Below are positions 6,917 to 22,956 of a DNA stretch of 37,241 nucleotides, in pieces. The notes beneath the pieces were generated by a model. It had not been told where the DNA came from, did no database searches, and saw nothing but the letters and a program-made list of their open reading frames with translations. How positions within the stretch are numbered: position 1 is the stretch's first letter; the number at the start of each line of letters is the position of its first letter. A program made the position numbers and the translations under genes. Origin of the DNA: Planctomycetaceae bacterium (lineage in GTDB: Bacteria > Planctomycetota > Planctomycetia > Pirellulales > Thermoguttaceae); NCBI GenBank assembly GCA_037442445.1, contig JBBIQF010000084.1, forward strand, positions 1 to 37,241, read 5' to 3'.

Positions 6917-7825
6917 ATGAGCCACATTGGCCCGCCGCTGGTCATCGGCCTGGGCGAGGTGCTGTGGGATATCTTTGCCGACTCGCGGCGACCGGGCGGG
7001 GCGCCGGCCAATGTGGCGTTCCAAGCGTCGCAACTCGGCTGCCGGGGAGTGGTCTGCTCGCGCGTGGGGCAAGACCCCCTCGGCCGTGAACTGCTGGCCT
7101 TCCTCGCCGAGCAAGGGATGGCCACCGAGTTCATCCAGCAGGATCCGGTGCATCCGACCGGCACGGTAACGGTCGATACCTCGCAGCCGGCACACCCCCG
7201 GTTCATCATCCACGAAGACGCCGCCTGGGATTACTTGGAGTTCGACGAGCCGTGGCGGGCACTGGCGGGGCAGGCGGCGGCCATCTGCTTCGGCACCCTG
7301 GCCCAGCGCTCGGCGGTGTCGCGCCAGACCATCCACCGCGTGTTGCGGGCGGCCAGCCCCGGCTGCCTGATCGTGTACGATGTCAACCTGCGGCAAGCGT
7401 GGTACCAGCGGGATTGGATCGAGGCATCGCTGGCCGCCGCCGGCTGGGCGAAGCTCAATACCGACGAGGCCGCCGAACTGGCCCGGCTGCTGGAGCTGGG
7501 ACCGCTCGATCATGTCGCTTTCGCCCGCGCGCTGCAACAGCGTTACGGCCTCCAGGCGGTCTGCATTACCCGGGCAGAGCGCGGGGCGATACTCGTCAGC
7601 GGCCAGACGGTAGTGAATCAGCCGGGGGAACCCGTGGAAGTGGTCGATACCGTTGGGGCGGGCGACGCCTTTACCGCTGCTTGGATCGCGGCCGGCTTGT
7701 GGAACTGGCCCCCCGCAGCGCAGGTGGCTTTTGCCAACCGGGTGGGCGCCTTGGTCGCCAGCCGCCCCGGGGCCATGCCGGTGCTCCGCGAAGAGTTCGC
7801 CCAACTGGCCAAAGAGTATTCGTAG
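6917..7825 (+). CDS. PfkB-family sugar kinase (fructokinase/ketodeoxygluconate-kinase-like)
   Basis: N-terminal GEVLWDIF...GGAPANVA and the C-terminal PfkB signature DTVGAGDAF. GAGGA lies 7 nt upstream of the ATG. Confidence 0.85.
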   Translation: MSHIGPPLVIGLGEVLWDIFADSRRPGGAPANVAFQASQLGCRGVVCSRVGQDPLGRELLAFLAEQGMATEFIQQDPVHPTGTVTVDTSQPAHPRFIIHEDAAWDYLEFDEPWRALAGQAAAICFGTLAQRSAVSRQTIHRVLRAASPGCLIVYDVNLRQAWYQRDWIEASLAAAGWAKLNTDEAAELARLLELGPLDHVAFARALQQRYGLQAVCITRAERGAILVSGQTVVNQPGEPVEVVDTVGAGDAFTAAWIAAGLWNWPPAAQVAFANRVGALVASRPGAMPVLREEFAQLAKEYS

Positions 7826-8019
7826 CGTGCCGGCGCCGGCCCGGGATCGCTCACGGCGAGACGGCCGAATATGCCGGGCAAAGGGAACATGTCGGCCGCA
7901 CCGGGTCACCCGCCCGGGCAGCAAGTTTTGCCGGGGGCGTGCCGATGGGTGTCAGGGAAGCGGACGGCAGCCGCCGCTTGGGCTGCGCGCCGCCGGACCG
8001 CCTTGCGCTGCCGTGGCCG

Positions 8020-8739
8020 ATGCGACGTTTCTTGCTGTACATCGTATTGCCGGCGCTGGCGATTGCCGGACCGCCCTTGGCCCTGGCCGGCTGGAAATGG
8101 TGGAAGGCCCACGGGGGCCGGTTGGCCTGGCCGGCGCTGGCGATTTCGTCATCGGGCCAATCGCCAAGCAACTCCGAAAACGAAGACGCGATCCTCCCTG
8201 GCCAGGCGCCTTGGGCCCAGGGGAGCAGCCCCGCTGCACCTGGGGCCAGCCCCGCCCAGCCACCAGACCCGTCGGGGCGCCGCACGGGTGCAACCGGCCC
8301 TGACGTGCCCGCCATCGAACTGGCCGAAGCGATCCGCTTTGACATCACCCCGGGCTGGGTGATGACGCGGTGGCCCCGGGTGTCGGCCGGCCTAGCCGAG
8401 CTTCAACTCCAAGGTTATCGCGTGCCGCTGGTGACCGGAACTGCCGAGGACGATCTTGCCGGGGCCTTGACGTACTACTTCAACCCCTGGCAGCAGGTCG
8501 AGCGGATCACGTTCCGCGGGACGACCGGCAACGCGGGAAAACTCATCGAGTATCTGGTGCGGCAATACCGTTTCGGCCGGCGCTTGACCAACGACCCGCG
8601 GATCGTGCGTTTCGAGGTCCCCGGGCCGCGGGGCGAACCCCACAGTTGGCTGGAAATCCGGCCCGCCGGCGTGGTCAAAGCCAGCGAACCGTTCCAGCGC
8701 CTCAGCGTGGTACTGGTGCTCAATCGGCCGAACGAGTAG
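8020..8739 (+). CDS. Hypothetical membrane-anchored protein
   Basis: N-terminal hydrophobic helix MRRFLLYIVLPALAIAGPPLALAG, a Ser/Pro-rich linker, then a globular-looking C-terminal domain (IRFDITPGWVMTRWPRV...YYFNPWQQVERITFRG). The start is uncertain (alternative ATG at 7945). No family recognised. Confidence 0.5.
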   Translation: MRRFLLYIVLPALAIAGPPLALAGWKWWKAHGGRLAWPALAISSSGQSPSNSENEDAILPGQAPWAQGSSPAAPGASPAQPPDPSGRRTGATGPDVPAIELAEAIRFDITPGWVMTRWPRVSAGLAELQLQGYRVPLVTGTAEDDLAGALTYYFNPWQQVERITFRGTTGNAGKLIEYLVRQYRFGRRLTNDPRIVRFEVPGPRGEPHSWLEIRPAGVVKASEPFQRLSVVLVLNRPNE

Positions 8740-8866: not shown

Positions 8867-10366
8867 CTACTTCCACAGGTCGAGGCCCGCCGGCAGCTTC
8901 ACCTCCGGCGGCGGCAGTTTCAGCGCGCGGGCAATCTCTTGCAATCGCCCCAGGATGGCCTCGGCCAGAGTGCTGGCGTAGTGGATGTTGTGTATCCCGT
9001 TGGCCGAGCGGAGGAAGGCCAGATCGTGCTCGACATCGGCCAGCCGGGCGCCCAGGTCCTTGGCCTGGGGCTCGGGCAGGGCCGCCGCCTGGAGGGCCGC
9101 GCGGACCTTCTTTGCCGCGTCTTCCAAAGCCGCCAGGGCCGCTTTCCACTGTTGGTGGTATGCCTGGAGGCGGGGCAAGGCGGCGGCTTCATGGCAGGAA
9201 CCGCACACCTGGATCGAGCCCTTCCACGTGACGGCCCCGGTGGGGCCCTCCTCCTTGTAGTGGTGGCACGTGCGGCATTCCAGCCGCACCGAAACCATGC
9301 CGTTGGTATGCGGCGGGATGCTCTTGCCGCCGGTACCCCGGAGCATGTTCACCTGGTCGCGATGATGGTCGGGATGGCAGGCCGTGCAATCCCCAGCCGC
9401 GTGTTCGATCTTCTGCTTGTCCAGCGAATGCTCGATGGCGAGGTGGCAGTCCAGGCAATCGATCTTGTGATCGGTAACGTGCTTCTGATGCAGGAAAACG
9501 TGGTCATCGATGCGGGCCAGGTCTTCCTCCCGGTTGTGGCATACGCCGCACCGTTCGTGGGGCACCTCGCCGCGTCCGCGGATGAGGTCGCCATGGCAGT
9601 TCGCGCAATCCACGCCCCGCTCGAAGGCCAGTTGATGGGTGAACACCGTGCCCCCGCCCAGGTCGAACTTCTTATCGGGGATTTCGTGGCAGCGGGTGCA
9701 GGCCCCCAGGCCTTCGTTGAACCGGCCCTCCTTGAAATGGCAGAGGAAGCAGGTCGTGGTGGTTACGGTCATGTGGCTCCCCTGGACGATCTGGCTGTGG
9801 CAGCTCGTGCAGCGAAGCCGCTTGCCGCGGCGCAGCTCGCCCAGATGCTGGGCATGATCGAACGGGACGCCATGGAAGTCCACCCGGCCGGACAGCAGCC
9901 GCGTCTCGTGGCAGCCGGACCGCAGGCAACTGGCATCGGGGATTTCGGCCGCCGGCCGGGGGCCTTCGCTCTGCGTAACGTACTTGGCCAATTGCACCAA
10001 TCCCAAGAGCTTGCCCCGCACCTTGCCCCCGAAGCCGGGCGGGAAGTGGCACTCGATGCACGACACATCGCGGTGCGAGGAGGCCTGCCACGACTGGTAA
10101 TACGGCTCCATGATGTGGCAGCTCCGGCAGAACTCGGGGCGCGAGGTGTACCATCCGGCGGCGAAGGTGCCGAACATGCCCACCAGCAAGACCACGCCTG
10201 CCAGGGCCGCCAGCCGAACCAGCAGCCAGCGGGCCACATGCCCGGCGCGCCGCACGCCCGGGTGGCGCTGGAGCCAGGCCCGCCAGCCGCCGCCGGCTGG
10301 GCCGGATTCCGGGGCGGCGCCGGATTCCGGGCTGCCCCCGAGCATTTCGGCAGATTCGTCAACCAT
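8867..10366 (-). CDS. Membrane-anchored multihaem cytochrome c with NapC/NirT-type N-terminal module (11 CXXCH + 1 CX4CH)
   Basis: A TM helix is followed by CRSCHIMEPYYQSWQASSH and CIECH, the NapC/NirT/NrfH-type head. Nine further CXXCH motifs follow (CTSCH, CFLCH, CTRCH, CANCH, CGVCH, CLDCH, CTACH, CRTCH, CGSCH), plus CLRSGCH (CX4CH). The C-terminus is a helical region with GIHNIHYA. The ATG at 10366 has a strong GGGAGGTG 6 nt upstream; an alternative ATG lies at 10411. Confidence 0.85.
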   Translation of the reverse strand: MVDESAEMLGGSPESGAAPESGPAGGGWRAWLQRHPGVRRAGHVARWLLVRLAALAGVVLLVGMFGTFAAGWYTSRPEFCRSCHIMEPYYQSWQASSHRDVSCIECHFPPGFGGKVRGKLLGLVQLAKYVTQSEGPRPAAEIPDASCLRSGCHETRLLSGRVDFHGVPFDHAQHLGELRRGKRLRCTSCHSQIVQGSHMTVTTTTCFLCHFKEGRFNEGLGACTRCHEIPDKKFDLGGGTVFTHQLAFERGVDCANCHGDLIRGRGEVPHERCGVCHNREEDLARIDDHVFLHQKHVTDHKIDCLDCHLAIEHSLDKQKIEHAAGDCTACHPDHHRDQVNMLRGTGGKSIPPHTNGMVSVRLECRTCHHYKEEGPTGAVTWKGSIQVCGSCHEAAALPRLQAYHQQWKAALAALEDAAKKVRAALQAAALPEPQAKDLGARLADVEHDLAFLRSANGIHNIHYASTLAEAILGRLQEIARALKLPPPEVKLPAGLDLWK

Positions 10367-10465
10367 CGATCGCACCTCCCGGGCGCCCGTCGGCGCACCG
10401 GATCTACCCATCCCAGCGAAAGCGTTTCCCTCTTGCCCAAACCGCGCGGTCGCCGCCGGCCACCG

Positions 10466-13126
10466 CTATTTCTCCAAGCCGGCCACGATCATCGCCACCA
10501 ACAGCCCAAGCCCGATGGCCAGCGCCGTGAAGCCCAGCAGGCGCACCGTCCACAGTTTCCGCCGCGAGGGGACAAGTGCCCGCCGGGCTTCCAGCTCGCC
10601 GTTGGCCCGCAGGCGCTCGTAGAAATCCGGCCGCTCGTGCCGCAATTCGTCCTCGCTCACCAGGCCCGTCAGGGCCGACAAATCGGCCGGGAACTTATCC
10701 GGCCGGAAGTGCGTGTTGAAAAAGTGCACCGCAAACACGAACCCCGTGGCCAGTAGCGCCTGCGTGGAATGGATCACCTTGGCGATATTGAGGGTCACGG
10801 CGGGCAGGAAGGCGGTCAACAACTGCGGGAACCAGAGCACCAGGCCGGTGAAGCCGATGATCACCACGTCGGCACAGGCGCCCCAGAAGTCGAACTTCTC
10901 CCAGTAGGTCCAGCGCTCGAAGCGCGGCCGGGGCCCCAGCCCGAAAAACCACCGCAGCATCCGCACCAGGTCTTTCACGTCGCGCCAGTTGGGCACGGGC
11001 GAATCCGGGCCGAAGATCGCCTCGCGCAGCGACCCGTTCCGCCGGTGGCGGACCACGTGCCGGATCATCCGCCCCACATACACGAAAAAGCAGCCGAACG
11101 TCACCACCGCGAAGATGCGGTGCCACACGCTGGTCGATTGGAACCCTCCCAGGGCATAGGCCAGCGACTTGGCCCACTGGGTGTCGCTGTACTTCAAAGG
11201 CAAGCCCGTCAAGGCCAGCCCCAGGAACGAGATCAAAAGGCACCAGTGGCTAATGCGGTGGAAGGGGACGAAGCGCACATAGGCCGGCTCGCCCGGCCGG
11301 AGCCCCCGCGGCCGGCCGTTCTGCCACACGTCGACAAGGCTCCGAATGAACCATAGCACCGTGTGCACGCCGAAGACGGCAAACACCGTCACCAGCAGGG
11401 TCATGAAGAATAGATACACCCCGTGTACCAGCCGGCTCCGCTGGGGATCGGTGTGATCCAGGTGGGGATCGAACTTCAGGAAGTTCCCGCCGGTGACCAT
11501 GTGGCACTGGCCGCAGGTCTGGGCCCGGTTGGCGGGCGAGAGCGTGGAGTTCGGATCCGCCACCGCCAGAATTTCATGGGCGCCGTGGCAATCGGAACAC
11601 TTGGCCGCCGGCCCATACCCCAGTTCGGTCAACTGGCCGTGCAGGCTCATGGCGTAGCTGGTCGAGAGGTTGGCGTGGCAGTTGCCGCAGCGGTGCGGCA
11701 GCTCCTGGCGGAAGGCGGCCGACTCGGGGTGCACCTGGTCGTGCCCCTGATGGCAATCGGTGCAACTGGGCTTGCGCCGCGACTTGCCGCCGGGGGCCTG
11801 CCGGTCGGCAATCGCCCCGGCCCCGTTGCCCCGCGCATGTACGCTCTTCTCCAACCACTCCTCGATAAAGCGGTGGCACTTGCCACAGGTGTCGGCCACG
11901 CGCGTGGGGTGCAAGGTGGACTTGCTGTTGCCCGGGTAATAGATGCCGTGCGACCCGTGGCAGTCGGCGCACACCGCCGTTACCTGGAGTCCCGATTTGT
12001 ACAGCCCGTGGCCATGCACGCCGCTGCGGTAGGTGTCCAGATCGTTCTTGTAGGTCTCCAGGCGCTGGCGATGGCAATTGTCGCAGGTGTTGACCTGGTT
12101 ATCGGGAAACAAGGGAGACCGCGGGTCGCGCCAGGCGATCAAATGGTGCAACGTCGGGCCGTGGCACTTGCTGCACTCCAAGGGCGTGCCCCGGCCAAGC
12201 TCGTCCCGCTTCTCGCCGGCCTTGCCGTGCACGCTCTCGTTGAGCTGCGCGTACTGCTCCCTGTGGCAGTGGACGCACGCTTTGCGGACCTCGGCCAGCG
12301 GCTGCCGGAACCCATCCTCCACCGCGTGCGCCATGCGAAGGTCCGGCTCCTGATAATTGCCGCCGTGGCAATCATGGCAATTGACGCCCCGGGCGAAGTG
12401 GACATCCTCGGCCAGTTGGTCCTTGGGAACGTACAGCCTGCGGTTGGCCGCGTCCCACAGGTCCGAATCGCCGTGGCAGGTCAAGCACTGGTTTTGGTCC
12501 GCGGGCACCTGGGATCCTTTGGGCGGCGGCAAGGCGGCCGCTTTGGGCGGGGCCTGTGGCTCCGGGGTCGCCGCGGCGGCTCCAGGCGCTTTGGCGGGGG
12601 CCTTCTCTTTGGCAACAGCCGGCGCAGGTGGACCAGCGCCCGGTGGCGGAGGAGGCGGCGGCACCGTCTTGGCCCCGCCGGCCGGAGGGGGCGGAGGCGG
12701 TGTAACCTTGGCTCCACTCGGGGGAGGCGGCGGAGGCGGCGCGCCTTTGGACTCGCCCGCCGGAGGTGGCGGCGGAGCCTTCGCGCTATCCGGTGCGGGA
12801 GGGGCCGGCAGCGGCATCGTGCCTTGAGCCGCCGGCGCAGGCGGCGGGGGTGGCGGTGGCGGCGCAGGCGAGTCGGACGGGGGCGGCCCCGACTGCTGGG
12901 AGGGCTTCGGCGCGGGGCCGGCTGCGGAGGATTCCTCCACAGCCTTGGGAGCCTCGGGAGCAGAACCGGGCTTGCTAGCCGGTGGTGGCGGAACCGCCTT
13001 GCGGGCCGGGGGAGGGGGCGGTGGCGGCGCAGGAACCGCGCTCTCCGAAAAGAGGCCGGCCGCAGCCCATACGCCGGGCCCCGGCCCGACCGCAAGCGAT
13101 AGAACGATCACCCCAAGCACATTCAT
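10466..13126 (-). CDS. Fusion protein: signal peptide + ~175-aa polyproline spacer + 11-haem cytochrome c domain + C-terminal multi-span b-type cytochrome domain (FdnI/HydC-like)
   Basis: Begins MNVLGVIVLSLAVGPGPGVWA, followed by the Pro-rich region. It has 11 CXXCH motifs, several in the paired C..CH..H...(about 20 aa)...C..CH arrangement. The C-terminal ~330 aa carry about 6 hydrophobic helices with candidate haem-b His ligands (FHRISHW, VWHRIF, KVIHST, FAVHFF). The upstream part of ORF 10466-13360 looks non-coding. Confidence 0.85.
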   Translation of the reverse strand: MNVLGVIVLSLAVGPGPGVWAAAGLFSESAVPAPPPPPPPARKAVPPPPASKPGSAPEAPKAVEESSAAGPAPKPSQQSGPPPSDSPAPPPPPPPPAPAAQGTMPLPAPPAPDSAKAPPPPPAGESKGAPPPPPPPSGAKVTPPPPPPAGGAKTVPPPPPPPGAGPPAPAVAKEKAPAKAPGAAAATPEPQAPPKAAALPPPKGSQVPADQNQCLTCHGDSDLWDAANRRLYVPKDQLAEDVHFARGVNCHDCHGGNYQEPDLRMAHAVEDGFRQPLAEVRKACVHCHREQYAQLNESVHGKAGEKRDELGRGTPLECSKCHGPTLHHLIAWRDPRSPLFPDNQVNTCDNCHRQRLETYKNDLDTYRSGVHGHGLYKSGLQVTAVCADCHGSHGIYYPGNSKSTLHPTRVADTCGKCHRFIEEWLEKSVHARGNGAGAIADRQAPGGKSRRKPSCTDCHQGHDQVHPESAAFRQELPHRCGNCHANLSTSYAMSLHGQLTELGYGPAAKCSDCHGAHEILAVADPNSTLSPANRAQTCGQCHMVTGGNFLKFDPHLDHTDPQRSRLVHGVYLFFMTLLVTVFAVFGVHTVLWFIRSLVDVWQNGRPRGLRPGEPAYVRFVPFHRISHWCLLISFLGLALTGLPLKYSDTQWAKSLAYALGGFQSTSVWHRIFAVVTFGCFFVYVGRMIRHVVRHRRNGSLREAIFGPDSPVPNWRDVKDLVRMLRWFFGLGPRPRFERWTYWEKFDFWGACADVVIIGFTGLVLWFPQLLTAFLPAVTLNIAKVIHSTQALLATGFVFAVHFFNTHFRPDKFPADLSALTGLVSEDELRHERPDFYERLRANGELEARRALVPSRRKLWTVRLLGFTALAIGLGLLVAMIVAGLEK
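12512..13036 (-). repeat. Polyproline low-complexity coding region (runs of 6-8 Pro separated by short A/G/K/S-rich segments)
   Basis: Translated residues ~31-205 of the fusion cytochrome, e.g. APPPPPPPARK, APPPPPPPPAP, GAPPPPPPPSGAKVTPPPPPPAGGAKTVPPPPPPPGAG. Confidence 0.9.
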
Positions 13127-13311
13127 CCTGGACGATCTCCCGATAGGCTCGCGACACCTGCCACCCCCGCGCCTGTTGGCCCCGCTGCCTATCGCGCCGG
13201 GGCCCAAAAGGGGATGACCGCATCGGCACTCGATTTGGCCGGCCAACCACGGCCAGCCAAGCGCAGTGCTGTTGGAATCTCCGGCCGCTTTCAAGGCTGG
13301 CCGGCGAGACC

Positions 13312-13413
13312 GGCAGCTTACGCCGGCTCCATCTCCGGAAGCTTCTCGCTTGCCTGCCACACGGGCAGCTTACGCCGCCGGCTCCAAAGGCAGAGCTTGC
13401 GCTGCCGGCTGCG
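13312..13413. repeat. Triplicated GC-rich motif in the intercistronic spacer of the minus-strand cytochrome operon
   Basis: GGCAGCTTACGCCGGCTCCA (13312-13331). GGCAGCTTACGCCGCCGGCTCCA (13364-13386), identical apart from a GCC insertion. A degenerate third copy GGCAGAGCTTGCGCTGCCGGCTGCG (13389-13413). Confidence 0.7.
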
Positions 13414-13422
13414 GAGGGCGGG

Positions 13423-13980
13423 TTACTGCTTTTCGTACTTCGGATGCTCGTGGTGTCCCTGCGTCAGGTGGCAGCGGGCGCAAATATTGCCCGGCAGTAC
13501 CTTGTAAATCGAATCCCGGGCGATTTTTTCCTGTTCGGGGCTGAGTTTCTTGACGTTGAGGAAGGGCTTGCACGCCTCTTCATGCTTGCTCCCCGGCCCG
13601 TGGCACGCCTCGCAGGTGACGCCCAACAGGTTCTGAAGCAAGTCGGGCGTAGCGCCGGCCGCATACCCCCCTTCGTGCCCGTAGGCGGTGACGTGGCACT
13701 TCATGCATTCCGGATCGGCCTGGTATTTGGTGGGCATCTCGGTGAACGCGGTGGCGTGTTTGGTCTTCTTCCAGGCCGTGTACTGCTTGAAGTGGCAGGA
13801 TGAACACCGCTTCACACCGACATAGGTCTGGCCCGTGGGCGGGGCGGGTTCCGGGGCGGCTTGTTCCTCAGGGGGTTGCGCGGGGGCCGAGTGGGGTGTG
13901 ACGCCAAGCATCCACACCGCCCAACCCAAGATCACCACCACCGCACCACGATAGAGCCAGGGCGACGACATCCGGATCAT
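13423..13980 (-). CDS. Tetrahaem cytochrome c (cytochrome c554-like small multihaem family)
   Basis: Signal/anchor MIRMSSPWLYRGAVVVILGWAVWMLGV and four CXXCH motifs (CSSCH, CMKCH, CEACH, CARCH). The first sits in the context CSSCHFKQYTAWKKTKH. GAGGAG lies 8 nt upstream of the ATG. Confidence 0.85.
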   Translation of the reverse strand: MIRMSSPWLYRGAVVVILGWAVWMLGVTPHSAPAQPPEEQAAPEPAPPTGQTYVGVKRCSSCHFKQYTAWKKTKHATAFTEMPTKYQADPECMKCHVTAYGHEGGYAAGATPDLLQNLLGVTCEACHGPGSKHEEACKPFLNVKKLSPEQEKIARDSIYKVLPGNICARCHLTQGHHEHPKYEKQ

Positions 13981-14551
13981 GGACTTCGCTCCTCAAGCAA
14001 CTGGGGTGGAAAAACAACACGTCACACGCCGTTCAGGCCAAGCTAGCCTGGGAGTGCTTTTGGGCAGCGGAAGAAAGGGCGGCCGGCCGCCCCATGGCGC
14101 CACATCGAAGCCACGGACACCATGCGCAAGCATGGACCAGCTCTTCCTCCCGGCGGGCGAGCCGCAGAGCACCGGGCTCCTGCCACCAGCAGGCTTTCCC
14201 TCTCGGGGAATCGTCCGCGGTGGGAAGCAGGCGCCGGCGTCCTGCCGCGACCCAACCCTTTGCAACGACCAACGAGCGGTCCCGTTCGCCGGAGGCGCGG
14301 GATTCGGGCCCCGCACAGCGCTTCCTTGCAGCTCCGGCCGTGCCTCGGAAACACTCGGATTCGTAAACCTACTAGATCGCGGGGCATTCGTCAACTACCC
14401 GCCGCCAACTGCCCGGCGGGATTGCACGGAGGAGCCTGCGAAAAATCGCCCGGGACCGAGCGATACGGCTACGCCGCCGGAGAGCGGCCCGGCCAAGACG
14501 CGGCCGTTTGGCCTAATCGCCATAATTTACCTATTTGCTAACGTTTATTAC

Positions 14552-14580
14552 TTGACTCCATTCGGCTCCTCTGCTACAAG
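14552..14580 (+). promoter_or_regulatory. Candidate promoter TTGACT-N17-TACAAG with AT-rich upstream element, ahead of the Rieske/cyt b operon
   Basis: TTGACT at 14552-14557, 17-nt spacer, TACAAG at 14575-14580. It is preceded by the only AT-rich stretch of the region (cataatttacctatttgctaacgtttatta, 14521-14550) and lies about 50 nt upstream of the Rieske ATG. Confidence 0.45.
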
Positions 14581-14630
14581 GGGCACTGCACCATGCGGCG
14601 TTACTGCTTCCACCTAGGAATGAGGCATCG

Positions 14631-15110
14631 ATGAGCGACTCTCCCACACCCGTGCCGCGGCGAAATTGGTTGCTGCGATTGCTTCAGTGGAGCATCGCGG
14701 CCAGTGTCGCGGCCATCTTCTATCCGGTGGTGCGGTTCCTCTGGCCCCGCCCGGCCACGGTCTCCGGGGCGGCCGAGGTGACCGCACCGTTCACTGTCGA
14801 GGAACTCAAGGCTCGCTATGCCCGGGGCGAGGTGCCGCCACCGTTCAACTTCGACAACAAGCCGTGTCTGGTGGTGCTACTTCCCGACGGCGAAATCCGG
14901 GCGTTCAATGCCATCTGCACGCACGTGGCCTGCACGGTGGCATTCCGCCTGGACAAGAAGGACATCTTCTGCAACTGCCACAACGGGGTGTACGATCTGA
15001 ACGGGCAGCCGGTTTCCGGGCCGCCTCCCCGGCCCCTCCAGGCGTACAAGGTCATCCGGCGTCGCTTGCCCAACGGGCAGGAGGAGATCGTTGTCTCACG
15101 CACCGCTTGA
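14631..15110 (+). CDS. Rieske [2Fe-2S] subunit of a cytochrome b6f/bc-type complex
   Basis: Twin-arginine-like N-terminus (PRRNWLL) plus a TM helix. Rieske cluster boxes CTHVAC and CNCHNG. Confidence 0.9.
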   Translation: MSDSPTPVPRRNWLLRLLQWSIAASVAAIFYPVVRFLWPRPATVSGAAEVTAPFTVEELKARYARGEVPPPFNFDNKPCLVVLLPDGEIRAFNAICTHVACTVAFRLDKKDIFCNCHNGVYDLNGQPVSGPPPRPLQAYKVIRRRLPNGQEEIVVSRTA

Positions 15111-16317
15111 AAGTGCCCTGCCCGCCATGCCGCCGGGCAGCCGATGGAAAACCTTCCTCGACGAGCGCCTAGGGCTGGATGCCCTCGCGCAACTGGCCGA
15201 GAAAAAGCGGGTGCCGGTCCACCGGGCCACCGTGTTCTATTTTCTCGGCGGGATGGCCCTGTTCTTGTTCGGCATCCAGGTGGTGACCGGCATCCTGCTT
15301 TCGCTGTACTACAAGCCCTCGCCCGACCAGGCCTTCGAGAGCGTGCGGGCCATCATGACCGAGGTGGAGTTCGGCTGGCTGATCCGCTCCATCCACAGTT
15401 GGAGTGCCAATCTGCTGATCGGCGTGCTGTACCTGCACCTGTTGACCACCTTCATCGTGCGGGCCTATCGCCGGCCGCGCGAGTTCACCTGGATCACCGG
15501 GCTGGTGCTCTTGGCCCTGTTTCTGGCCTTCGGGTTTAGCGGCTACCTGCTGCCCTGGAACCAACTGGCCTTCTTCGCGACCAAGGTGGGCACCGATATC
15601 GCTGGCGGGGTGCCGCTGGTGGGCAAGTACATGCTGCTTTTGGCCCGCAGCGGGGAGGAAGTCACCGGCGATACGCTGGCCCGATTCTATTCGCTCCATG
15701 TGGTCATTCTGCCGCTGGTCACGCTGGCGGTGTTGGGGGTGCATCTCTATCTGGTGCAGAAGCACGGGATGAGCATCCCGCACCCGGTGATCCGGCGCTA
15801 CGGGGGCGAAGAGAAGGTGCCTTCGATCCCCTTCGTGCCCCACTTTTTGCTCCGCGACATGGTGGGCTGGTATGTGGCGTTGGGGCTCTTGGCCGTGCTG
15901 GCCGCCCTGTTCCCCTGGGAACTGGGGGTCAAGGCCGACCCATTCGGCTCCGCCCCGGAGGCGATCCGGCCCGAGTGGTACTTCCTGTTCATGTTCGCCA
16001 CGCTGGAGCAGACACCCTCGCACGTGTTCGGCCTGGAGAACAAGCAGGCGGTGGTCCTGTTTTTCAGCCTGGTGGGGCTGGTGGTGCTCTTGGTGCCGTT
16101 TCTGGATCGGGCCGCTGCCTGGGGCGGACCGCGGCGGGTGCTCAGTTTTCTGGCCACTTGGGCCGTGTGCGCGTTTGTCGTCCAGACGGGCGTGGGCCTG
16201 GGGCTTTTGGATTTCCATCTGGGGACTTCGGTGGCCACCAGCGGTATAGCGGCCGTGGTGCTTGCCGCGGGGTATGTGGCGTATTGTCGCTTTGCTGGCC
16301 GGGAACAGTGCTCATGA
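15091..16317 (+). CDS. Cytochrome b (fused cytochrome b6 + subunit IV-like)
   Basis: The N-terminal half matches cytochrome b6 (YFLGGMALFLFGIQVVTGILLSLYY...SIHSWSANLLIGVLYLHL...GYLLPWNQLAFFATKV). The C-terminal half carries the Qo-site PEWY motif (RPEWYFLFMF). A TTG at 15091 follows AGGAGGAG by 4 nt and overlaps the Rieske gene by 20 nt; an alternative ATG lies at 15127. Confidence 0.9.
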   Translation: MSHAPLESALPAMPPGSRWKTFLDERLGLDALAQLAEKKRVPVHRATVFYFLGGMALFLFGIQVVTGILLSLYYKPSPDQAFESVRAIMTEVEFGWLIRSIHSWSANLLIGVLYLHLLTTFIVRAYRRPREFTWITGLVLLALFLAFGFSGYLLPWNQLAFFATKVGTDIAGGVPLVGKYMLLLARSGEEVTGDTLARFYSLHVVILPLVTLAVLGVHLYLVQKHGMSIPHPVIRRYGGEEKVPSIPFVPHFLLRDMVGWYVALGLLAVLAALFPWELGVKADPFGSAPEAIRPEWYFLFMFATLEQTPSHVFGLENKQAVVLFFSLVGLVVLLVPFLDRAAAWGGPRRVLSFLATWAVCAFVVQTGVGLGLLDFHLGTSVATSGIAAVVLAAGYVAYCRFAGREQCS

Positions 16318-18083
16318 AACAAGCCGTGCACCTGTGGGTTTTGGGCGTGGGGCTAGCGGCCGTTTTGTCCGGTTATGCCGGGGGGCCGGATGGGTGGCTG
16401 TTTTCGTCGGCGTTGGCCGCGGCAGAACCGAGCGCGGTGCCTCCCCCGCCCCCGCCACCCCCGCCGCCGGTGGCGACGAAAAAACAGCCGGCTGCCGAGA
16501 AACCGGCAGCAGCGCCCCCCGCCCCACCGCCGCCACCCCCACTGGCGAAGCCCGGGGAAAAGGTTGTAACGCCGCCACCCCCGCCGCCGGTGGCTAAGCC
16601 GGGCGAGAAGGCGGTGGCACCTCCCCCAGCCGCGCCACCCCCGCCACCTCCTGTGGCCAAGCCAGGGGCCAAACCCCCAGCAGCCCCACAACCGGCCGGG
16701 CCTTCCAAGCCCGCTGCCAAGGCGGCGGCCGCGGGTGGTACCCGGCCTAACCAATGCCTCGATTGCCACGGCAACCCCGAGGTCTGGGAAGGCCCGCAGC
16801 TTCGGCTGCATGTGACCCAGAAGGACACGGCGGCCGATGTGCACTGGCAAAAAGGGCTCCGCTGCGTCGACTGCCACGGCGGCAACCCCGAGACCGACAA
16901 GGTGAACGAGGCGCATGCCGAGGAAGACGGCTTTCGCCGATTCCGCCCCGATGGCGACTACACCAAACCGCCCGACCCGCTGGTCGTCGTCCAATTGTGC
17001 GGCGAGTGCCACGCCGATATCCAGCGGATGCGGCCGTTCAATCCCCGCGCGCGGGTGGACCAATTGCAGGAGTACTGGACCAGCGGGCACGGCCGGCGGC
17101 TTAAGGAGGCCAAGGACCGCGAGGTGGCCACGTGCGTCTCGTGCCATGGCCGGGCACATGGGACCGCGGCCGATCGGGGGCCTCACGGCGTCCGTCTGGT
17201 GGCCGATCTCGACTCGCCCGTGTATCCCAAAAACGTGGCCAAGACGTGCGCTACCTGCCACGCTGACGAAAAGCGGATGGCCGGGCGCGAGTATCACGGC
17301 CGGCCCATCGGCCACGAGCAATATGCCCAGTGGTCGCGGAGCGTCCATGCCGAGACGCTCTTGGAAAAGGGGGACCTTTCGGCCCCCACCTGCAACGACT
17401 GCCACGGCAACCACGGGGCCTTGCCCCCGGACGTCGATTCGGTGGCCAACGCCTGTGGCACCTGCCACGGCAAGGTGGCCAGTTTGTTTGCCGCCACGCG
17501 AATGAAACACGCCTTCGAGAAGGCCGGGCTGCCCGGCTGCGCCACCTGCCACGGTGCGCACGAGATTCACCATCCCACCGTGGAAATGCTGGGGATGGAG
17601 GAGGGCGCGGTATGCGTGCAGTGCCATGCGCAAGGGAAGTACGGGGCCACGGTGGCCGGCGCCCAGGCCGCCCGGCGATTCCGGGGCGATCTGGATGCCC
17701 TGCGGGAAGAGATCGCCGCGGCCGAGGCCACGATCGAGATGGCCGAGCGGTTGGGCATGGCCATCCCCGGCCCGGCGAGCGATCCCCGCACCGATGTGCG
17801 ACTCCACCTGCGCAAGGCCAGCGATGCCCTGACCGCCGCCCGCGTCGAAATCCACAGCTTCGCCGCCGAGCCGCTGGAGAAAATCCTCGATTCGGGCCGG
17901 CAAATCGCTGCCGAAGCACAACAAAGTGCCGAGACCGCCATCCGCCAGTATCACGCCCGGCGGGTCTGGCTGGCGGCGTCGCTGGTGCCCATCGTGCTGG
18001 TCATCGGGGTGCTGCTCTTGTATATCCGCAGCCTGCCTCCCGTGCCGCTCCCGGGCGAAACGCCATCTGCCCCGCAGGCGTAA
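16314..18083 (+). CDS. Nonahaem cytochrome c with N-terminal polyproline spacer and C-terminal membrane anchor
   Basis: The ATG overlaps the cytochrome b stop (ATGA at 16314-16317). Signal peptide, Pro-rich residues ~43-135, and nine CXXCH motifs (CLDCH, CVDCH, CGECH, CVSCH, CATCH, CNDCH, CGTCH, CATCH, CVQCH). C-terminal TM helix WLAASLVPIVLVIGVLLLYI. Confidence 0.88.
   Translation: MKQAVHLWVLGVGLAAVLSGYAGGPDGWLFSSALAAAEPSAVPPPPPPPPPPVATKKQPAAEKPAAAPPAPPPPPPLAKPGEKVVTPPPPPPVAKPGEKAVAPPPAAPPPPPPVAKPGAKPPAAPQPAGPSKPAAKAAAAGGTRPNQCLDCHGNPEVWEGPQLRLHVTQKDTAADVHWQKGLRCVDCHGGNPETDKVNEAHAEEDGFRRFRPDGDYTKPPDPLVVVQLCGECHADIQRMRPFNPRARVDQLQEYWTSGHGRRLKEAKDREVATCVSCHGRAHGTAADRGPHGVRLVADLDSPVYPKNVAKTCATCHADEKRMAGREYHGRPIGHEQYAQWSRSVHAETLLEKGDLSAPTCNDCHGNHGALPPDVDSVANACGTCHGKVASLFAATRMKHAFEKAGLPGCATCHGAHEIHHPTVEMLGMEEGAVCVQCHAQGKYGATVAGAQAARRFRGDLDALREEIAAAEATIEMAERLGMAIPGPASDPRTDVRLHLRKASDALTAARVEIHSFAAEPLEKILDSGRQIAAEAQQSAETAIRQYHARRVWLAASLVPIVLVIGVLLLYIRSLPPVPLPGETPSAPQA
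16440..16718 (+). repeat. Polyproline coding repeat (10-Pro run, then three copies of PPPPP[LV]AKPG[EA]K)
   Basis: DNA reads cct ccc ccg ccc ccg cca ccc ccg ccg ccg (10 consecutive Pro codons), followed by PPPPPPLAKPGEKVVT / PPPPPPVAKPGEKAVA / PPPPPPVAKPGAKPPA. Confidence 0.9.
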
Positions 18084-18112
18084 GCAAGCTCCGCGGCCGG
18101 ACTGATGTTTTA

Positions 18113-18153
18113 GCCGGGAGGCCCGAAGGCCCGGCGCTCGTTCGGGGGGTTTT
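18113..18153 (+). terminator. Possible terminator hairpin after the nonahaem cytochrome gene
   Basis: GCCGGG-aggcccgaagg-CCCGGC (18113-18135) forms a 6-bp GC stem. A GGGGGGTTTT tract follows about 14 nt later, so the geometry is non-canonical. Confidence 0.3.
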
Positions 18154-18242
18154 CGCGGGCCCGATGCCGGGTTAGATTGACCGGCAATCGGATTTGCACG
18201 AATGCACGGTGCTGCGGAGCGCGGGCATCCTGGCTAGCCCGT

Positions 18243-18332
18243 GCAGCCGGGACGGCAAAACCACAAAGCAGCCGGGACGGCTGCACTACAAGGCAGCCGG
18301 GACGGCTAAACCACAAGGCAGCCGGGCGGGCG
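18243..18332. repeat. Four tandem ~25-bp repeats (GCAGCCGGGACGGC core) upstream of the P-II gene
   Basis: Cores at 18243-18256, 18269-18282 and 18293-18306 (all GCAGCCGGGACGGC) and at 18319-18332 (GCAGCCGGGCGGGC). The period is 24-26 bp. The second unit forms a perfect hairpin GCAGCC-gggac-GGCTGC. Confidence 0.85.
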
Positions 18333-18374
18333 CGCTCCACTGGCGTCGCCAAGCGTGTTCCGGGAGTTTCGCGG

Positions 18375-18677
18375 GTGAAGCAGGTCATCGCCATCGTCAA
18401 GCCGTACCTGGTCGAGAAGGTGCTCGATGCCCTCAAGTACGCCCCCTTGGAAGGGTGCAGCGTGACCGAGGTGAAAGGTTACGGCCGGCAGAAAAGCTAC
18501 CTCGACGAATACCAGGGTAGCGAGTATTCACTGGCCTTCTTGCCCAAGGTAGAAATCACCCTTTGGGTGGACGAGATGCGTGTGGAAGAGGTGGTGCGGA
18601 CCATTGTCGAGGTGGCCCGCACCGGGCGCATGGGCGATGGCAAGATTTTCGTTCTGCCGGCCTGGGGCGAAGCGTAA
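18375..18677 (+). CDS. P-II family signal-transduction protein (GlnB/GlnK-like, short C-terminus)
   Basis: The GTG start has GGGAG 8 nt upstream. Sequence VKQVIAIVKPYLVEKVLDAL...VTEVKGYGRQKSYLDEYQGSEYSLAFLPKVEI...ARTGRMGDGKIFV matches P-II, including the T-loop with the GSEY tyrosine. It ends about 10 aa earlier than E. coli GlnB. Confidence 0.85.
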   Translation: MKQVIAIVKPYLVEKVLDALKYAPLEGCSVTEVKGYGRQKSYLDEYQGSEYSLAFLPKVEITLWVDEMRVEEVVRTIVEVARTGRMGDGKIFVLPAWGEA

Positions 18678-18698
18678 GCCGAGGGAGTTGGCCCGCCC

Positions 18699-19757
18699 AT
18701 GTCCGAGCCTCTGGAGTTCGCCTGGAGCTGCCCCCGGCCGCTGGACATCCACGCTACGGTGCAGATGGCGCACGGCGGTGGCGGCCGGCTGATGCGCGAC
18801 CTGGTGCACGAGGTGTTCCTGGCGGCCTTTGCCGGGCGCGGCCCCAACCAGCCGCCCCACGATAGCGCCGTCGTGTCGGTGGGGGGCATTCGCCTGGCGT
18901 TTACCACCGACAGTTTCGTGGTCAGCCCCCTGTTTTTCCCCGGGGGCGATATCGGCAAGCTGGCGGTATTCGGGACGGTGAACGACCTGGCCATGGCCGG
19001 GGCCAAACCCCGATGGCTCAGCGCGGCATTCGTTCTGGAAGAGGGGTTCCCGCTGGAGACGTTGCGGCGAATCGTGGCTTCGATGCAGGCGGCGGCCCAA
19101 CAGGCCGGCGTGGAGATCGTTACCGGCGATACCAAGGTCGTGGACCGCGGCAAAGGCGACGGCGTGTACGTCAATACGGCCGGGATCGGCATCGTGCCGC
19201 CGGGGGTCGATGTCTCGCCGCAGCGGGTCCGGCCAGGCGATGCGGTGTTCGTCAGCGGCGATTTGGGGCGCCACGGGATCGCCATCCTCTCGGTGCGCGA
19301 AGGCCTTGCGTTCGAGGGGGCGCTGGCCAGCGATTGCGCGCCTTTGGCCGGCCTGGTCGAGCGCCTGGCGGCCTTGGGGGCCGATCTGCATTGCCTGCGG
19401 GATTTGACGCGCGGGGGATTGGCCGCCGCTTTGAACGAGATCGCCCTGGATGCCAAGGTGGGCATTGCGCTGGACGAGGAGGCCATTCCCGTGGCCGAGC
19501 CCGTGGCCGGCGCGTGCGAACTCTTGGGTTTGGACCCGCTGTACGTGGCCAACGAAGGCCGCCTGGTGGCGTTTGTATCGGCCGAGGCGGCAGATCGGGC
19601 CTGGGAGATCCTGGCCGCCTGGTCCGGCGACAGCCGCCCGGCCCGCATCGGCCGGGTGTCGGCCGAACATCCCGGCATCGTCGCCGTGCGAAACGCTTTG
19701 GGCGGCCAGCGGATCGTGGACCTGCTGGCAGGCGAACCCCTGCCGCGAATCTGCTGA
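18699..19757 (+). CDS. hypE: [NiFe]-hydrogenase maturation protein HypE (carbamoyl dehydratase)
   Basis: Collinear similarity to E. coli HypE as I recall it: AHGGGG near the N-terminus, FTTDSFVVSPLFFPGGDIGKLAVFGTVNDLAMAGAKPRWLS, IVTGDTKVV, LRDLTRGG, and the diagnostic C-terminal PRIC. Confidence 0.92.
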   Translation: MSEPLEFAWSCPRPLDIHATVQMAHGGGGRLMRDLVHEVFLAAFAGRGPNQPPHDSAVVSVGGIRLAFTTDSFVVSPLFFPGGDIGKLAVFGTVNDLAMAGAKPRWLSAAFVLEEGFPLETLRRIVASMQAAAQQAGVEIVTGDTKVVDRGKGDGVYVNTAGIGIVPPGVDVSPQRVRPGDAVFVSGDLGRHGIAILSVREGLAFEGALASDCAPLAGLVERLAALGADLHCLRDLTRGGLAAALNEIALDAKVGIALDEEAIPVAEPVAGACELLGLDPLYVANEGRLVAFVSAEAADRAWEILAAWSGDSRPARIGRVSAEHPGIVAVRNALGGQRIVDLLAGEPLPRIC

Positions 19758-19885
19758 CCGCTGGGGCTCGCTTCGCCGCAACGGGACTTCAGCTTCCAGG
19801 CCCCATACGCTAAGCTTTTCCTCAGCTTGCAAGGCCCATCGGCGGCGGAAGCATCCCCGGAGGTTGGGGAAGGCAGCGAGGTGGC

Positions 19886-20785
19886 ATGGCACAAGCCGAG
19901 GTATGGACAGTTGGCCGGCTGTTGGCCTGGACCACGGAGTTTCTCAAGCGGCACGGCTCGCAGACGCCTCGCCTGGATGCCGAGGTCCTCTTGGCCGAGG
20001 CCCTGGGATGCCGCCGCATCGATCTGTACACGGCTTTTGAAGAGGTGCCTTCGGAGGCGGCCCGCGCGGTGTTCCGGCAGCTTGTCCAGCGCCGGGCCGA
20101 AGGCGCTCCGGTGGCCTACCTGGTCGGCCGGCGGGAGTTCTATTCGCTGTGTTTTCGGGTGACGGCCGATGTGCTCATTCCCCGGCCGGAAACCGAACTG
20201 GTCGTCATGACGCTCATCGAACTGGCCAAAGCCCGGCTGGCCCGGTGCCCCGAGCAGCCCCTCCGCGTATGCGACGTGGGGACCGGCAGCGGGGCCATCG
20301 CCGTGGCCGTGGCCAAGCACCTCCCTCAAGCCCGCCTCACGGCGCTGGACACCAGCGCCGCGGCCCTGGCCGTGGCGCGCGAGAATGCCGAAACGCACGG
20401 CGTCTCTGGCCAGATCGAGTTCGTCCAGAGCGACCTGTTCGCCGCAGTTGCGCCTGAAGAGCGATTCGACTTCATCGCCAGCAATCCGCCCTACGTCAGC
20501 GAGGCGGAGTTCGAACACCTGGCCCGGGATATACGCGACTTCGAGCCGCGGGCAGCCCTGGTCGCCGGGCCCTTGGGGACGGAGGTGATCGCCCGGCTGG
20601 TGCCCGAAGCAGCCAAGCGCCTGGCTCCGGGGGGCCACCTGTTGATCGAGATTAGCCCCATGATCCACGACGCGGTGCAGGCCATCCTCGGGGCCGAGAC
20701 GCTTCTGGAAATCGGGCCCACCGTGCGCGATGCCGCGCGGCATCCCCGCGTGGTGCAAGCCCGACGCATCCAGGCCCCGCCGTAA
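19886..20785 (+). CDS. prmC: Peptide chain release factor N5-glutamine methyltransferase
   Basis: SAM-binding DVGTGSGAIA, catalytic NPPY, and HemK/PrmC N-terminal helical domain (RLDAEVLLAEALG...DLY). Confidence 0.9.
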   Translation: MAQAEVWTVGRLLAWTTEFLKRHGSQTPRLDAEVLLAEALGCRRIDLYTAFEEVPSEAARAVFRQLVQRRAEGAPVAYLVGRREFYSLCFRVTADVLIPRPETELVVMTLIELAKARLARCPEQPLRVCDVGTGSGAIAVAVAKHLPQARLTALDTSAAALAVARENAETHGVSGQIEFVQSDLFAAVAPEERFDFIASNPPYVSEAEFEHLARDIRDFEPRAALVAGPLGTEVIARLVPEAAKRLAPGGHLLIEISPMIHDAVQAILGAETLLEIGPTVRDAARHPRVVQARRIQAPP

Positions 20786-21291: not shown

Positions 21292-21340
21292 GCTCCCCGC
21301 TCCCTGCTCCGTGCTCCCTGCTCCCTGCTCCGTGCTCTCA
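21292..21340. repeat. Seven tandem heptanucleotide units (GCTCC[C/G][C/T] type)
   Basis: gctcccc gctccct gctccgt gctccct gctccct gctccgt gctctca, read directly from 21292-21340 on the + strand. Confidence 0.9.
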
Positions 21341-22339: not shown

Positions 22340-22779
22340 GCCGCACCTCCGCCCACTATGGGCGGGCTCAGTCCGGGATGGACCCACTGGCTGGTTCCGT
22401 CGGCCCAATGCTCCTCTTTCCAGATGGGGACCGACTCTTTCAGCCGGTCGATGAGCCACTGCCCCGCCTCGAAGGCCGCCTGGCGATGCGCGGAGCTGAC
22501 GGCCACGGCCACGCTGATCTGGCCGACTTCGACCCGCCCCAACCGGTGGCCCACGCTGCACGCCAAGAGGGGCCAGCGCTTTTGCACCTCGCAAACCAGC
22601 TCGGCGAGCAGTTTTTCGGCCAGAGGTGCGTAGGCCTCGTAGTGCAGCCACTGGGTGCGCCGGCCATCGGTCATTTCGCGCGTGGTGCCCAAAAAAAGGA
22701 CCACCGCCCCGGCAGCCGGCGATTGGACCGACTGGAGCACGGCAGCGACATCGATGGGTTCGCTCGTCAGGCGGATCAT
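22336..22779 (-). CDS. moaE: Molybdopterin synthase catalytic subunit
   Basis: MIRLTSEPIDVAAV...GAVVLFLGTTRE...VGQISVAVAVSSAHRQAAFEA...KESVPIWKEE matches MoaE, including the PIWK(K/E)E motif. Confidence 0.88.
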   Translation of the reverse strand: MIRLTSEPIDVAAVLQSVQSPAAGAVVLFLGTTREMTDGRRTQWLHYEAYAPLAEKLLAELVCEVQKRWPLLACSVGHRLGRVEVGQISVAVAVSSAHRQAAFEAGQWLIDRLKESVPIWKEEHWADGTSQWVHPGLSPPIVGGGAA

Positions 22780-22956
22780 GTGCGTTTCCCGGCGTGCGGG
22801 GCCGGCCCGTACGGAGCCCGGGCATCCTGGCCACACGGCGATGGAGCGCGGGCAGCTTGGCCGCAACACACGCGGCCGGCTTGGCCGGGCTTTGGCTCTA
22901 CCCGCCGCGCTCCCACTAAGTATACGGATTGCGGCAGCCGGGTCACGGGGAGGGGC

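Follow-up and report, generated by a model that had tools for sequence, protein, structure and literature searches.

A divergent cluster of multihaem cytochrome and Rieske/cytochrome b genes in Planctomycetota, a candidate inner-membrane and periplasmic half of an extracellular electron-transfer pathway

Contig JBBIQF010000084.1 of a Planctomycetaceae bacterium (GenBank assembly GCA_037442445.1) carries two divergent operons that encode multihaem c-type cytochromes together with membrane-bound, quinone-reactive proteins. The operons lie within a stretch of 37,241 bp with a G+C content of 67%, which was analyzed in full and is referred to here as the window. The minus-strand operon comprises genes for a c554-like cytochrome (A), a fusion of a multihaem c domain to a cytochrome b (B), and a NrfH-headed multihaem cytochrome (C). 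The plus-strand operon comprises genes for a Rieske protein (D), a cytochrome b (E), and a nonahaem cytochrome (F). Here, we describe the products of these six genes, the conservation of their grouping in other genomes, and the pathways of electron flow in which they may take part. The grouping of the two operons is not accidental, and the neighbours of the cluster in related bacteria point to a possible exchange of electrons with the cell exterior.

The six genes and their products

A listing of open reading frames (ORFs) places all six genes at the coordinates and on the strands given by a first-pass annotation, which had been made from the sequence without database searches, and it likewise bears out the ATGA stop/start overlap of E and F at 16314 (Table 1). 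Pfam and NCBIfam searches support the names that the annotation had given to the proteins: a c554-like protein, a c/b fusion, a NapC/NirT-type head, a Tat-type Rieske protein, and a fused b6/subunit-IV cytochrome b with a PEWY motif. Its census of haem-binding motifs was reproduced by a motif count, which found 4 + 11 + 11 + 9 = 35 CXXCH motifs in A, B, C, and F, one additional CX4CH in C, and no CXXCK in any of the six proteins. All six frames of the window together contain 36 CXXCH motifs; 35 of these are in frame within the four cytochrome c genes A, B, C, and F, the sole exception lying at position 24293, and the motif density is thus far above chance.

Table 1. Positions of the genes and other features in the window and, in the last three rows, of gene pairs in related loci
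Feature	Position	Strand	Basis or detail
A, secreted c554-like tetrahaem cytochrome, 185 aa	13423..13980	-	4 CXXCH; Pfam Cytochrome_C554
B, CbcL/MtoC/MtrH-type fusion, 886 aa	10466..13126	-	11 CXXCH; Ni_hydr_CYTB
Pro/Ala-rich low-complexity linker of B, about residues 19-210	12497..13072	-	composition scan
C, membrane-anchored NrfH/NapC-headed dodecahaem cytochrome c, 499 aa	8867..10366	-	11 CXXCH and CX4CH
D, Rieske [2Fe-2S] protein with twin-arginine N-terminus, 159 aa	14631..15110	+	Pfam Rieske
E, cytochrome b, fused b6 and subunit IV, 408 aa, 8 transmembrane helices	15091..16317	+	Cytochrome_B and Cytochrom_B_C
F, nonahaem cytochrome c subunit, 589 aa	16314..18083	+	9 CXXCH
Pro/Ala-rich linker of F	16386-16751	+	
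Divergent A/D intergenic region (spacer), 650 bp	13981..14630	.	homologous spacer in L001
TTGACT-N17-TACAAG element in the spacer	14552-14580		conserved with L001
16-bp palindrome CCATGCGCAAGCATGG in the spacer	14120-14135		conserved with L001
DUF6690 gene, convergent with C	7252-8739		
P-II-like gene	18375-18677	+	95 bits, under cut-off
Orphan hypE	18699-19757	+	TIGR02124, 434.8 bits (cut-off 251.6)
MoaA gene	21338-22897		
MtrA-like and MtrB-like pair, locus L002	13753-17558		
MtrA-like and MtrB-like pair, locus L084	8557-12322		
MtrA-like and MtrB-like pair, locus L085	1993-6542		

In protein B, a signal peptide and a Pro/Ala-rich linker precede a periplasmic c domain with 11 haems, which is fused to a dihaem cytochrome b of the FdnI/HydC type with six transmembrane helices. 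The protein scores 37.8 bits against Pfam Ni_hydr_CYTB (PF01292; cut-off 30.1) and has additional Pfam matches to multihaem domains. Four of the six hydrophobic helices rise above the hydropathy threshold and two were read off the sequence. Residues His 627, 669, 786, and 801, as well as all 11 CXXCH motifs, are invariant among 15 aligned homologues. In an AlphaFold2 (AF2) model of B the multihaem domain has a predicted local distance difference test score (pLDDT) below 50, as is expected in the absence of haems, and the membrane domain alone is interpretable. The only significant match of this domain in the Protein Data Bank (PDB) is FdnI (1kqf_C; E 3.8e-4, TM-score 0.73 on the target), a subunit of formate dehydrogenase-N. 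Over 3,300 homologues of B were found, those in metagenome-assembled genomes (MAGs) of Thermoguttaceae being up to 80% identical and other matches up to 93%. The 5' end of the gene is ambiguous, with a reading frame that is open to 13360. The linker of B, about 190 residues long, is present in the closest relatives only (880-910 aa), other members of the family having 700-750 aa. In both B and F, where it is about 120 residues long, the Pro/Ala-rich linker follows the signal peptide and precedes the first haem, and the two linkers may be periplasmic spacers.

Protein C is anchored by a single N-terminal transmembrane helix (residues 48-66). Its head aligns with NrfH (2j7a_C, E 2.5e-8) over a region that takes in the CXXCHxM motif of haem 1 (CRSCHIM at 80), and it scores 45.9 bits against Pfam Cytochrom_NNT and 59.5 bits against the NCBIfam model of NrfH, which is under the cut-off of 134.2. 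The CX4CH motif (CLRSGCH) is kept in 22 of 29 orthologues and exchanged for CXXCH in four. This pattern of conservation or replacement marks it as a true twelfth haem site and C as a dodecahaem cytochrome. An alternative ATG at 10411 leaves the 5' end of C ambiguous and would lengthen the protein to 514 aa. Protein A, the first product of the operon, scores 52.7 bits against Pfam Cytochrome_C554 (PF13435; cut-off 20.8) and matches the structure of cytochrome c554 (PDB 1bvb, E 5.8e-13). Its N-terminus, a hydrophobic stretch followed by SAPA/Q, is signal-like.

On the plus strand, D scores 43.9 bits against Pfam Rieske (cut-off 20.3), and its best NCBIfam match is the iron-sulfur subunit of the b6f complex. 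The twin arginines are residues 10-11, and both cluster-binding boxes of Rieske proteins are present (CTHVAC at 96 and CNCH at 114). Gene E starts at a TTG inside D, with an overlap of 20 nt between the two, as in the nearest relative. Its product scores 174.8 bits against Cytochrome_B and 37.6 bits against Cytochrom_B_C, and its best PDB matches are cytochrome b6 chains (E 1e-55). E possesses the His pairs 102/116 and 203/218 and a PEWY motif at 294, and has Phe in place of the haem-ci cysteine of b6 (FYFLGG vs FYCLGG). F is composed of a signal peptide, the Pro/Ala-rich linker, nine haem sites, a helical region, and a C-terminal transmembrane anchor (551-569). It is paralogous to the multihaem c domain within B (BLASTP E 1e-32, 27% identity; 16734-18083 vs 11267-12529), and one multihaem module has therefore been joined to two different quinone-reactive cores. 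The two domains share the opening NQCLxCHG...DVH...C.DCHGGN...AHAxEDGFR, and each is followed by a transmembrane helix.

The first-pass annotation had seen three different quinone-interacting modules at this locus, and these can now be named as a Rieske/cytochrome b pair, an FdnI-type cytochrome b with a multihaem c domain, and an NrfH-type head. Its statement that no catalytic partner is encoded nearby also holds, in that none of the 20 flanking ORFs in the window was identified by Pfam as a terminal oxidoreductase, a porin, or a cytochrome-maturation gene.

Linkage of the operons and their neighbours in relatives

Loci with a homologue of B were collected from one genome per species, giving 80 loci on which the window proteins were placed by tblastn. 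Homologues in Planctomycetota are 46-62% identical to B, and those at 34-41% come from Fibrobacterota, Ignavibacteria, Gemmatimonadota, Bacteroidota, Acidobacteriota, Hydrogenedentota, Burkholderiales, and others. The first-pass annotation had staked its proposal beforehand on the synteny of the two operons in relatives, and when all six proteins were placed, A-B-C was found no more than 10 kb from D-E-F in 12 of about 16 Planctomycetota loci with long flanks. The arrangement of the genes varies among these loci, being divergent, colinear (A-B-C-D-E-F), or expanded by a second B paralogue (B'-C-B). Linkage of B to D-E-F recurs in nine more distant loci from Bacteroidota, Terriglobia, and other Planctomycetota, and in the Bacteroidota MAG L072 the genes form a single colinear operon, B'-B-(ImcH-like, NNT-headed)-D-E-F-A. 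The position of the F gene is kept in every D-E-F locus examined.

At the position of C, 18 loci of other phyla encode ImcH-like proteins of about 500 aa with three transmembrane helices, an adjacent CX3CH, and 5-6 CXXCH motifs. The gene of the ImcH type adjoins a CbcL-like gene in L035, L040, L041, L043, L046, L055, L061, L064, L069, L072-L077, and L080. The pairing of a CbcL-like protein with a NapC/NirT-headed quinol dehydrogenase is thus a widely conserved core, which is present in 47 of 81 loci. Many of the loci of the ImcH type outside the Pirellulales-like group carry two tandem CbcL-like paralogues.

The ORFs of the 81 loci were also clustered in order to find recurrent neighbours. These are ResB/CcmF proteins of cytochrome c maturation, sigma-54 regulators, and a 4Fe-4S protein. 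No terminal oxidase or reductase recurs beside the cluster; the first-pass annotation had named a consistent link of the minus-strand operon to a known one as a ground for giving up its proposal. The E family, whose members are named cytochrome bc complex cytochrome b subunit, is very large and about 70% identical across Pirellulales, Thermoguttaceae, and Gemmataceae. In several genomes D-E-F is directly followed by ccmE/F/A/B/C; L086 has the same six-gene layout as the window and then ccm genes, and the Gemmataceae locus L085 has D-E-F and ccm genes without B or C. Protein A accompanies D-E-F even where B and C are lacking, as in L087, where A-D-E-F stands beside an ATP synthase operon without B, C, or Mtr-like genes.

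The same clustering revealed a protein of about 750 aa without a Pfam assignment, preceded by a 14-haem cytochrome, that flanks the cluster in 12-13 loci. The pair is additionally found in the Thermoguttaceae locus L084 and in L085. The 14-haem cytochrome clears the cut-off of the DmsE/MtrA-family model TIGR03508 (221-229 bits; cut-off 192). The larger protein is an all-beta barrel in an AF2 model (pLDDT 76), and the top PDB match of this model is MtrB (6r2q_B; E 8e-19, TM-score 0.63/0.70), the next matches being TonB-dependent receptors with TM-scores under 0.45. Its relation to MtrB is remote, with about 10% sequence identity; most members fall under the cut-off of Pfam MtrB_PioB, one being above it and six carrying a precomputed match. 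In L084 the MtrA-like and MtrB-like genes run towards C, B, and A, which have the opposite orientation, and are followed beyond the A/D divergence by D, E, F, and CcmF. In L085 the pair lies 3 kb upstream of D-E-F. As judged from these sequence and fold resemblances, the presence of an MtrAB-like pair beside the cluster in relatives suggests that electrons are exchanged with the cell exterior.

The barrel family has an invariant C...CH element (C220 and C242-H243 of P0121) with a spacing of 11-38 residues, which may be a covalent haem site within a porin. The family also weakly matches the NCBIfam model 'GSU2204 family CXXCH-containing (seleno)protein'. An 836-aa protein encoded downstream of C in L083, an 80%-identical relative, was considered as an MtrB-like barrel and rejected because it does not belong to this family. 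In L072 the colinear operon is followed, at 18067-20555, by genes for a 425-aa protein without a Pfam match and a 413-aa multihaem cytochrome, which may constitute a different porin-cytochrome pair.

Known systems, proposed electron flow, and alternatives

The CbcL/MtoC/MtrH family takes its name from CbcL of Geobacter sulfurreducens, MtoC of Dechloromonas and Gallionella, and MtrH of Rhodoferax. A survey of it across 15 phyla, which took in two planctomycete proteins, makes no mention of Rieske proteins; the members of the family have 3-23 CXXCH motifs and a HydC/FdnI-type b cytochrome with 4-6 transmembrane helices, and in Proteobacteria they are found within mtrAB/mtoAB clusters together with CymA (PMC6295460). 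Both features of the family, a multihaem periplasmic c domain and an FdnI-type cytochrome b with conserved histidines, are present in B, to which the Burkholderiales members are 44-45% identical in the b domain. The likeness to Geobacter CbcL itself (GSU0274), which has been described with 9 haems, is at the level of the family only; B has 11 haems and the 190-residue Pro/Ala linker, and its operon includes c554-like and NrfH-type dodecahaem proteins and is divergent from a Rieske/cytochrome b operon. The relatives in which the outer-membrane pair is found resemble mtoABCD, cymA-mtrH-mtrABC of Rhodoferax, and PioAB: their MtrA-like, MtrB-like, CbcL-like, NapC/NirT-headed, and small periplasmic cytochrome genes fill the same roles as MtoA, MtoB, MtoC, CymA, and MtoD. 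Unlike the Mtr and Mto systems, they encode a cytochrome with 14 haems instead of 10, a barrel with no more than a remote relation to MtrB, and, within the cluster, a Rieske/cytochrome b complex. The window differs further in not containing the outer-membrane pair.

A Rieske protein and a b6-type cytochrome are also clustered with several multihaem cytochromes in Geobacter, where extKLMNOPQS encodes the Rieske protein ExtO, the cytochrome b ExtP, ExtQ, and the multihaem cytochromes ExtM/N/S, with a porin-like ExtI in the wider cluster (PMC5877670). Protein A matches the c554-like C-terminal part of a UshA-like selenoprotein model, which adds to this likeness. However, E, which carries subunit IV as a fusion, scores 215.8 bits against ExtP (cut-off 290), F reaches just 19.4 bits against ExtM (cut-off 800), and the cluster encodes CbcL-like and NrfH-like proteins and neither a rhodanese nor a selenoprotein. 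The twin-arginine Rieske protein D and the two His pairs of E, spaced 14 and 15 residues apart, together with the PEWY motif and the best matches to b6, recall b6f and bc1 complexes. E departs from b6f proper in fusing b6 to subunit IV, in lacking the haem-ci cysteine, and in scoring 220.7 bits against the NCBIfam b6 model (cut-off 325), and a C-terminally anchored nonahaem protein of 589 aa stands in place of cytochrome f or c1.

Protein C shares with NrfH the single transmembrane helix and the CXXCHxM haem-1 motif. Proteins of the NrfH/NapC/NirT kind are small tetra- or pentahaem cytochromes that work with a cognate reductase (NrfH and CymA bind 4 haems, and ImcH binds 7), whereas C has 12 haem sites in 499 residues. 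With one transmembrane helix, a CX4CH, and 11 CXXCH motifs it also falls outside the definition of ImcH, which specifies three N-terminal transmembrane helices, a neighbouring CX3CH, about six CXXCH motifs, and a length of about 500 aa (PMC6295460); the proteins encoded at its position in 18 loci of other phyla do fit that definition. A role in nitrite ammonification (Nrf) was rejected, as the window encodes no CXXCK protein and no NrfA. Protein A scores 56.1 bits against the Nitrosomonas c554 (CycA) model Cyt554_Nsmonas, for which the cut-off is 400, and no HAO is encoded nearby. Because all scores lie below the equivalog cut-offs, we do not assign the window proteins as orthologues of ExtP, ExtM, b6, NrfH, Nitrosomonas c554, or DmsE. 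Planctomycetal Rieske/cytochrome b operons with multihaem c subunits are known from the anammox bacterium Kuenenia (R/b-2 and R/b-3). This reading was rejected as well; neither the cluster nor its flanks encode an HAO-like octahaem protein or an NAD(P) oxidoreductase subunit, and the partners of the Rieske/cytochrome b pair are instead CbcL-like and NrfH-like.

The membership of B in a surveyed family (PMC6295460) and the clustering of Rieske and multihaem genes in Geobacter ext (PMC5877670) mean that the parts of the cluster are not new. The component families are known, and the arrangement, far from being confined to this genome, is widespread. A 2026 study of peat described conduits in Acidobacteriota and Verrucomicrobiota only, and metagenomic surveys report novel multihaem clusters and an occasional CbcL in Planctomycetota and do not describe this arrangement. 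No description of the combined cluster was found in the literature searched, a limited library whose silence is not proof of novelty and which gave only counts of CbcL-like proteins in MAGs of Planctomycetes/Planctomycetota. The interpretation offered by the first-pass annotation is supported in part.

We propose that, in a Thermoguttaceae-like planctomycete, the products of the cluster make up the inner-membrane and periplasmic half of a pathway for extracellular electron transfer of the Mtr/Mto kind, in which quinol is oxidized at three gates and electrons flow outward, a proposal whose chances of being right and wrong we judge to be evenly balanced. Three enzymes would join the quinone pool to one periplasmic multihaem network. 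D-E-F would form a complex that oxidizes quinol at the PEWY Qo site by way of a Q-cycle, with F in the role of cytochrome c1 or f, and would conserve the most energy. B would conduct electrons across the membrane through the two haems of its FdnI-type cytochrome b, and C, with its NrfH-type quinol dehydrogenase head and twelve haems, would act at the periplasmic face in an electroneutral manner. The secreted tetrahaem protein A is a putative shuttle between the three gates and their downstream partners. Electrons would thus pass from quinol to the periplasm and on to an outer-membrane conduit or a periplasmic acceptor. By analogy with ImcH and CbcL in Geobacter, the choice of gate may be set by the potential of the acceptor.

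Several observations weigh against this proposal. In the window, tblastn with the MtrAB-like pair found no more than trivial matches at the level of CXXCH motifs within B and C, and the pair does not stand beside the cluster in the two closest relatives examined, L083 and the 90%-identical L001, so the case for extracellular transfer in the source organism rests on more distant relatives. The conservation of the E family across planctomycetal families fits a general-purpose bc complex, ccm genes often follow D-E-F, and D-E-F can occur with A alone by an ATP synthase operon. In its best-known setting, moreover, the FdnI-type cytochrome b is a quinone reductase, and two-component conduits such as MtoAB and PioAB are typical of iron oxidizers. 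The extracellular redox role suggested in the first-pass annotation gains support from the pair in relatives, while the window itself lacks the conduit. The further suggestion of a dedicated electron-distribution system has to be softened, since D-E-F belongs to a highly conserved planctomycetal bc family and may serve general respiration as well.

It is highly improbable that the locus is a coincidence, that is, two functionally unrelated cytochrome operons that merely happen to be neighbours. D-E-F is found without B and C, and it is absent near B in L017, L021, and L026 (three of the about 16 long-flank Planctomycetota loci) and in most loci of distant phyla; yet the linkage survives rearrangement into divergent, colinear, and B-duplicated forms and spans phyla, and the paralogy of F and the c domain of B ties the operons together. 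A purely housekeeping role in respiration is a more serious contender, although we consider it somewhat unlikely. D-E-F would then be the planctomycetal complex III, and A, B, and C accessory quinol dehydrogenases or carriers serving terminal enzymes encoded elsewhere, such as oxidases or nitrite, nitrate, or sulfur reductases. The huge E family and its reach into Gemmataceae, the ccm genes directly after D-E-F, the L087 locus near its ATP synthase operon, the housekeeping genes in the flanks of the window, and the lack of an outer-membrane conduit near the cluster in the window and its closest relatives all agree with this role. It is harder to reconcile with the MtrAB-like pair, which is adjacent in 13 of the about 16 long-flank loci and accompanies D-E-F alone in Gemmataceae, with the failure of any oxidase or reductase to recur in the 81 loci, and with the assignment of B and the ImcH-like partners to families tied to extracellular electron transfer (PMC6295460).

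Electrons might also flow inward, from Fe(II), from reduced minerals or humics, or from H2 by way of a periplasmic hydrogenase, through the multihaem network to B and possibly C, which would reduce quinone. The FdnI-type cytochrome b would in that case act as a proton-motive redox loop, and the Rieske/cytochrome b complex would feed a high-potential acceptor or run in reverse to provide reductant. FdnI, the one protein whose fold significantly matches that of the membrane domain of B, reduces quinone in formate dehydrogenase-N, and the conduit of the relatives, beside which no MtrC-like protein was noticed, has two components and so resembles MtoAB and PioAB of iron oxidizers. CbcL/MtoC/MtrH and CymA homologues occur in iron oxidizers as well as in iron reducers, but partners of the ImcH type are so far known from reducers only (PMC6295460), and no iron-oxidation marker was seen. 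With respect to H2, F is followed after 600 bp by a bona fide hypE, and four Burkholderiales loci (L055, L074, L075, and L078) have the B homologue and its ImcH-like partner between hypD and hypE, downstream of the gene for a NiFe-hydrogenase large subunit. The adjacency hints at a link with H2 metabolism; however, it is limited to the subclade of the window and to Burkholderiales, and in the window hypE is an orphan, with no hydrogenase or further hyp gene found in the Pfam scan of the flanks. On balance, we regard inward flow as unlikely.

The cluster and the MtrAB-like pair of its relatives may together represent an undescribed and widespread system of extracellular electron transfer in Planctomycetota, Bacteroidota, Acidobacteriota, and other groups, in which a proton-motive Q-cycle engine of the Rieske/cytochrome b type is wired through the shared module of F and B to an Mtr-type conduit. 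We advance this broader idea tentatively and think it possible rather than probable. If it is correct, extracellular respiration, or its reversal for uptake driven by minerals or H2, would be energy-conserving at the quinol step, and the CbcL-like and NrfH/ImcH-like gates would be lower-gear bypasses. This bears on the energy yield of the inner-membrane step in extracellular electron transfer, a step that is discussed mostly through the non-pumping proteins CymA, ImcH, and CbcL. To our knowledge, the Planctomycetota outside the anammox group, which abound in soils, peat, and sediments, are not counted among electroactive bacteria. The conserved gene set would give the phylum a concrete genetic basis on which to respire minerals or humics or to take up electrons. 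The cluster is also an evolutionary example of a single multihaem module placed on two distinct quinone-reactive membrane cores.

The divergent spacer and the flanking genes

The first-pass annotation had regarded the spacer between A and D as a control region shared by the two operons. The divergent spacer is real and is 83% identical to its counterpart in L001, with conserved blocks; that it is a control region we only infer. No strict sigma-70 consensus promoter was found in it by a consensus scan. The TTGACT-N17-TACAAG element and the palindrome CCATGCGCAAGCATGG are candidate promoter and operator sites, respectively, as judged from sequence. An inverted-repeat search found two short palindromes in the spacer, and a scan with a terminator consensus found one terminator-like site, which is within chance expectation. 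A search of the entire window against the RNA families of Rfam gave no match.

In a Pfam scan the flanks of the window contain housekeeping genes. These encode a PfkB kinase and the DUF6690 protein upstream and the P-II-like protein, HypE, PrmC, MoaA, an FAD-oxidase/CCG protein, and GTP cyclohydrolase downstream. The P-II-like gene and hypE are also neighbours of the cluster in L001, and their connection to it is uncertain. The DUF6690 gene, which converges on C, occupies the same position as the MtrB-like gene in relatives. Genes of molybdenum-cofactor synthesis are close by, MoaA being encoded in the window and MoaE and ThiS/MoaD in L001, and the source genome therefore probably codes for molybdoenzymes elsewhere.

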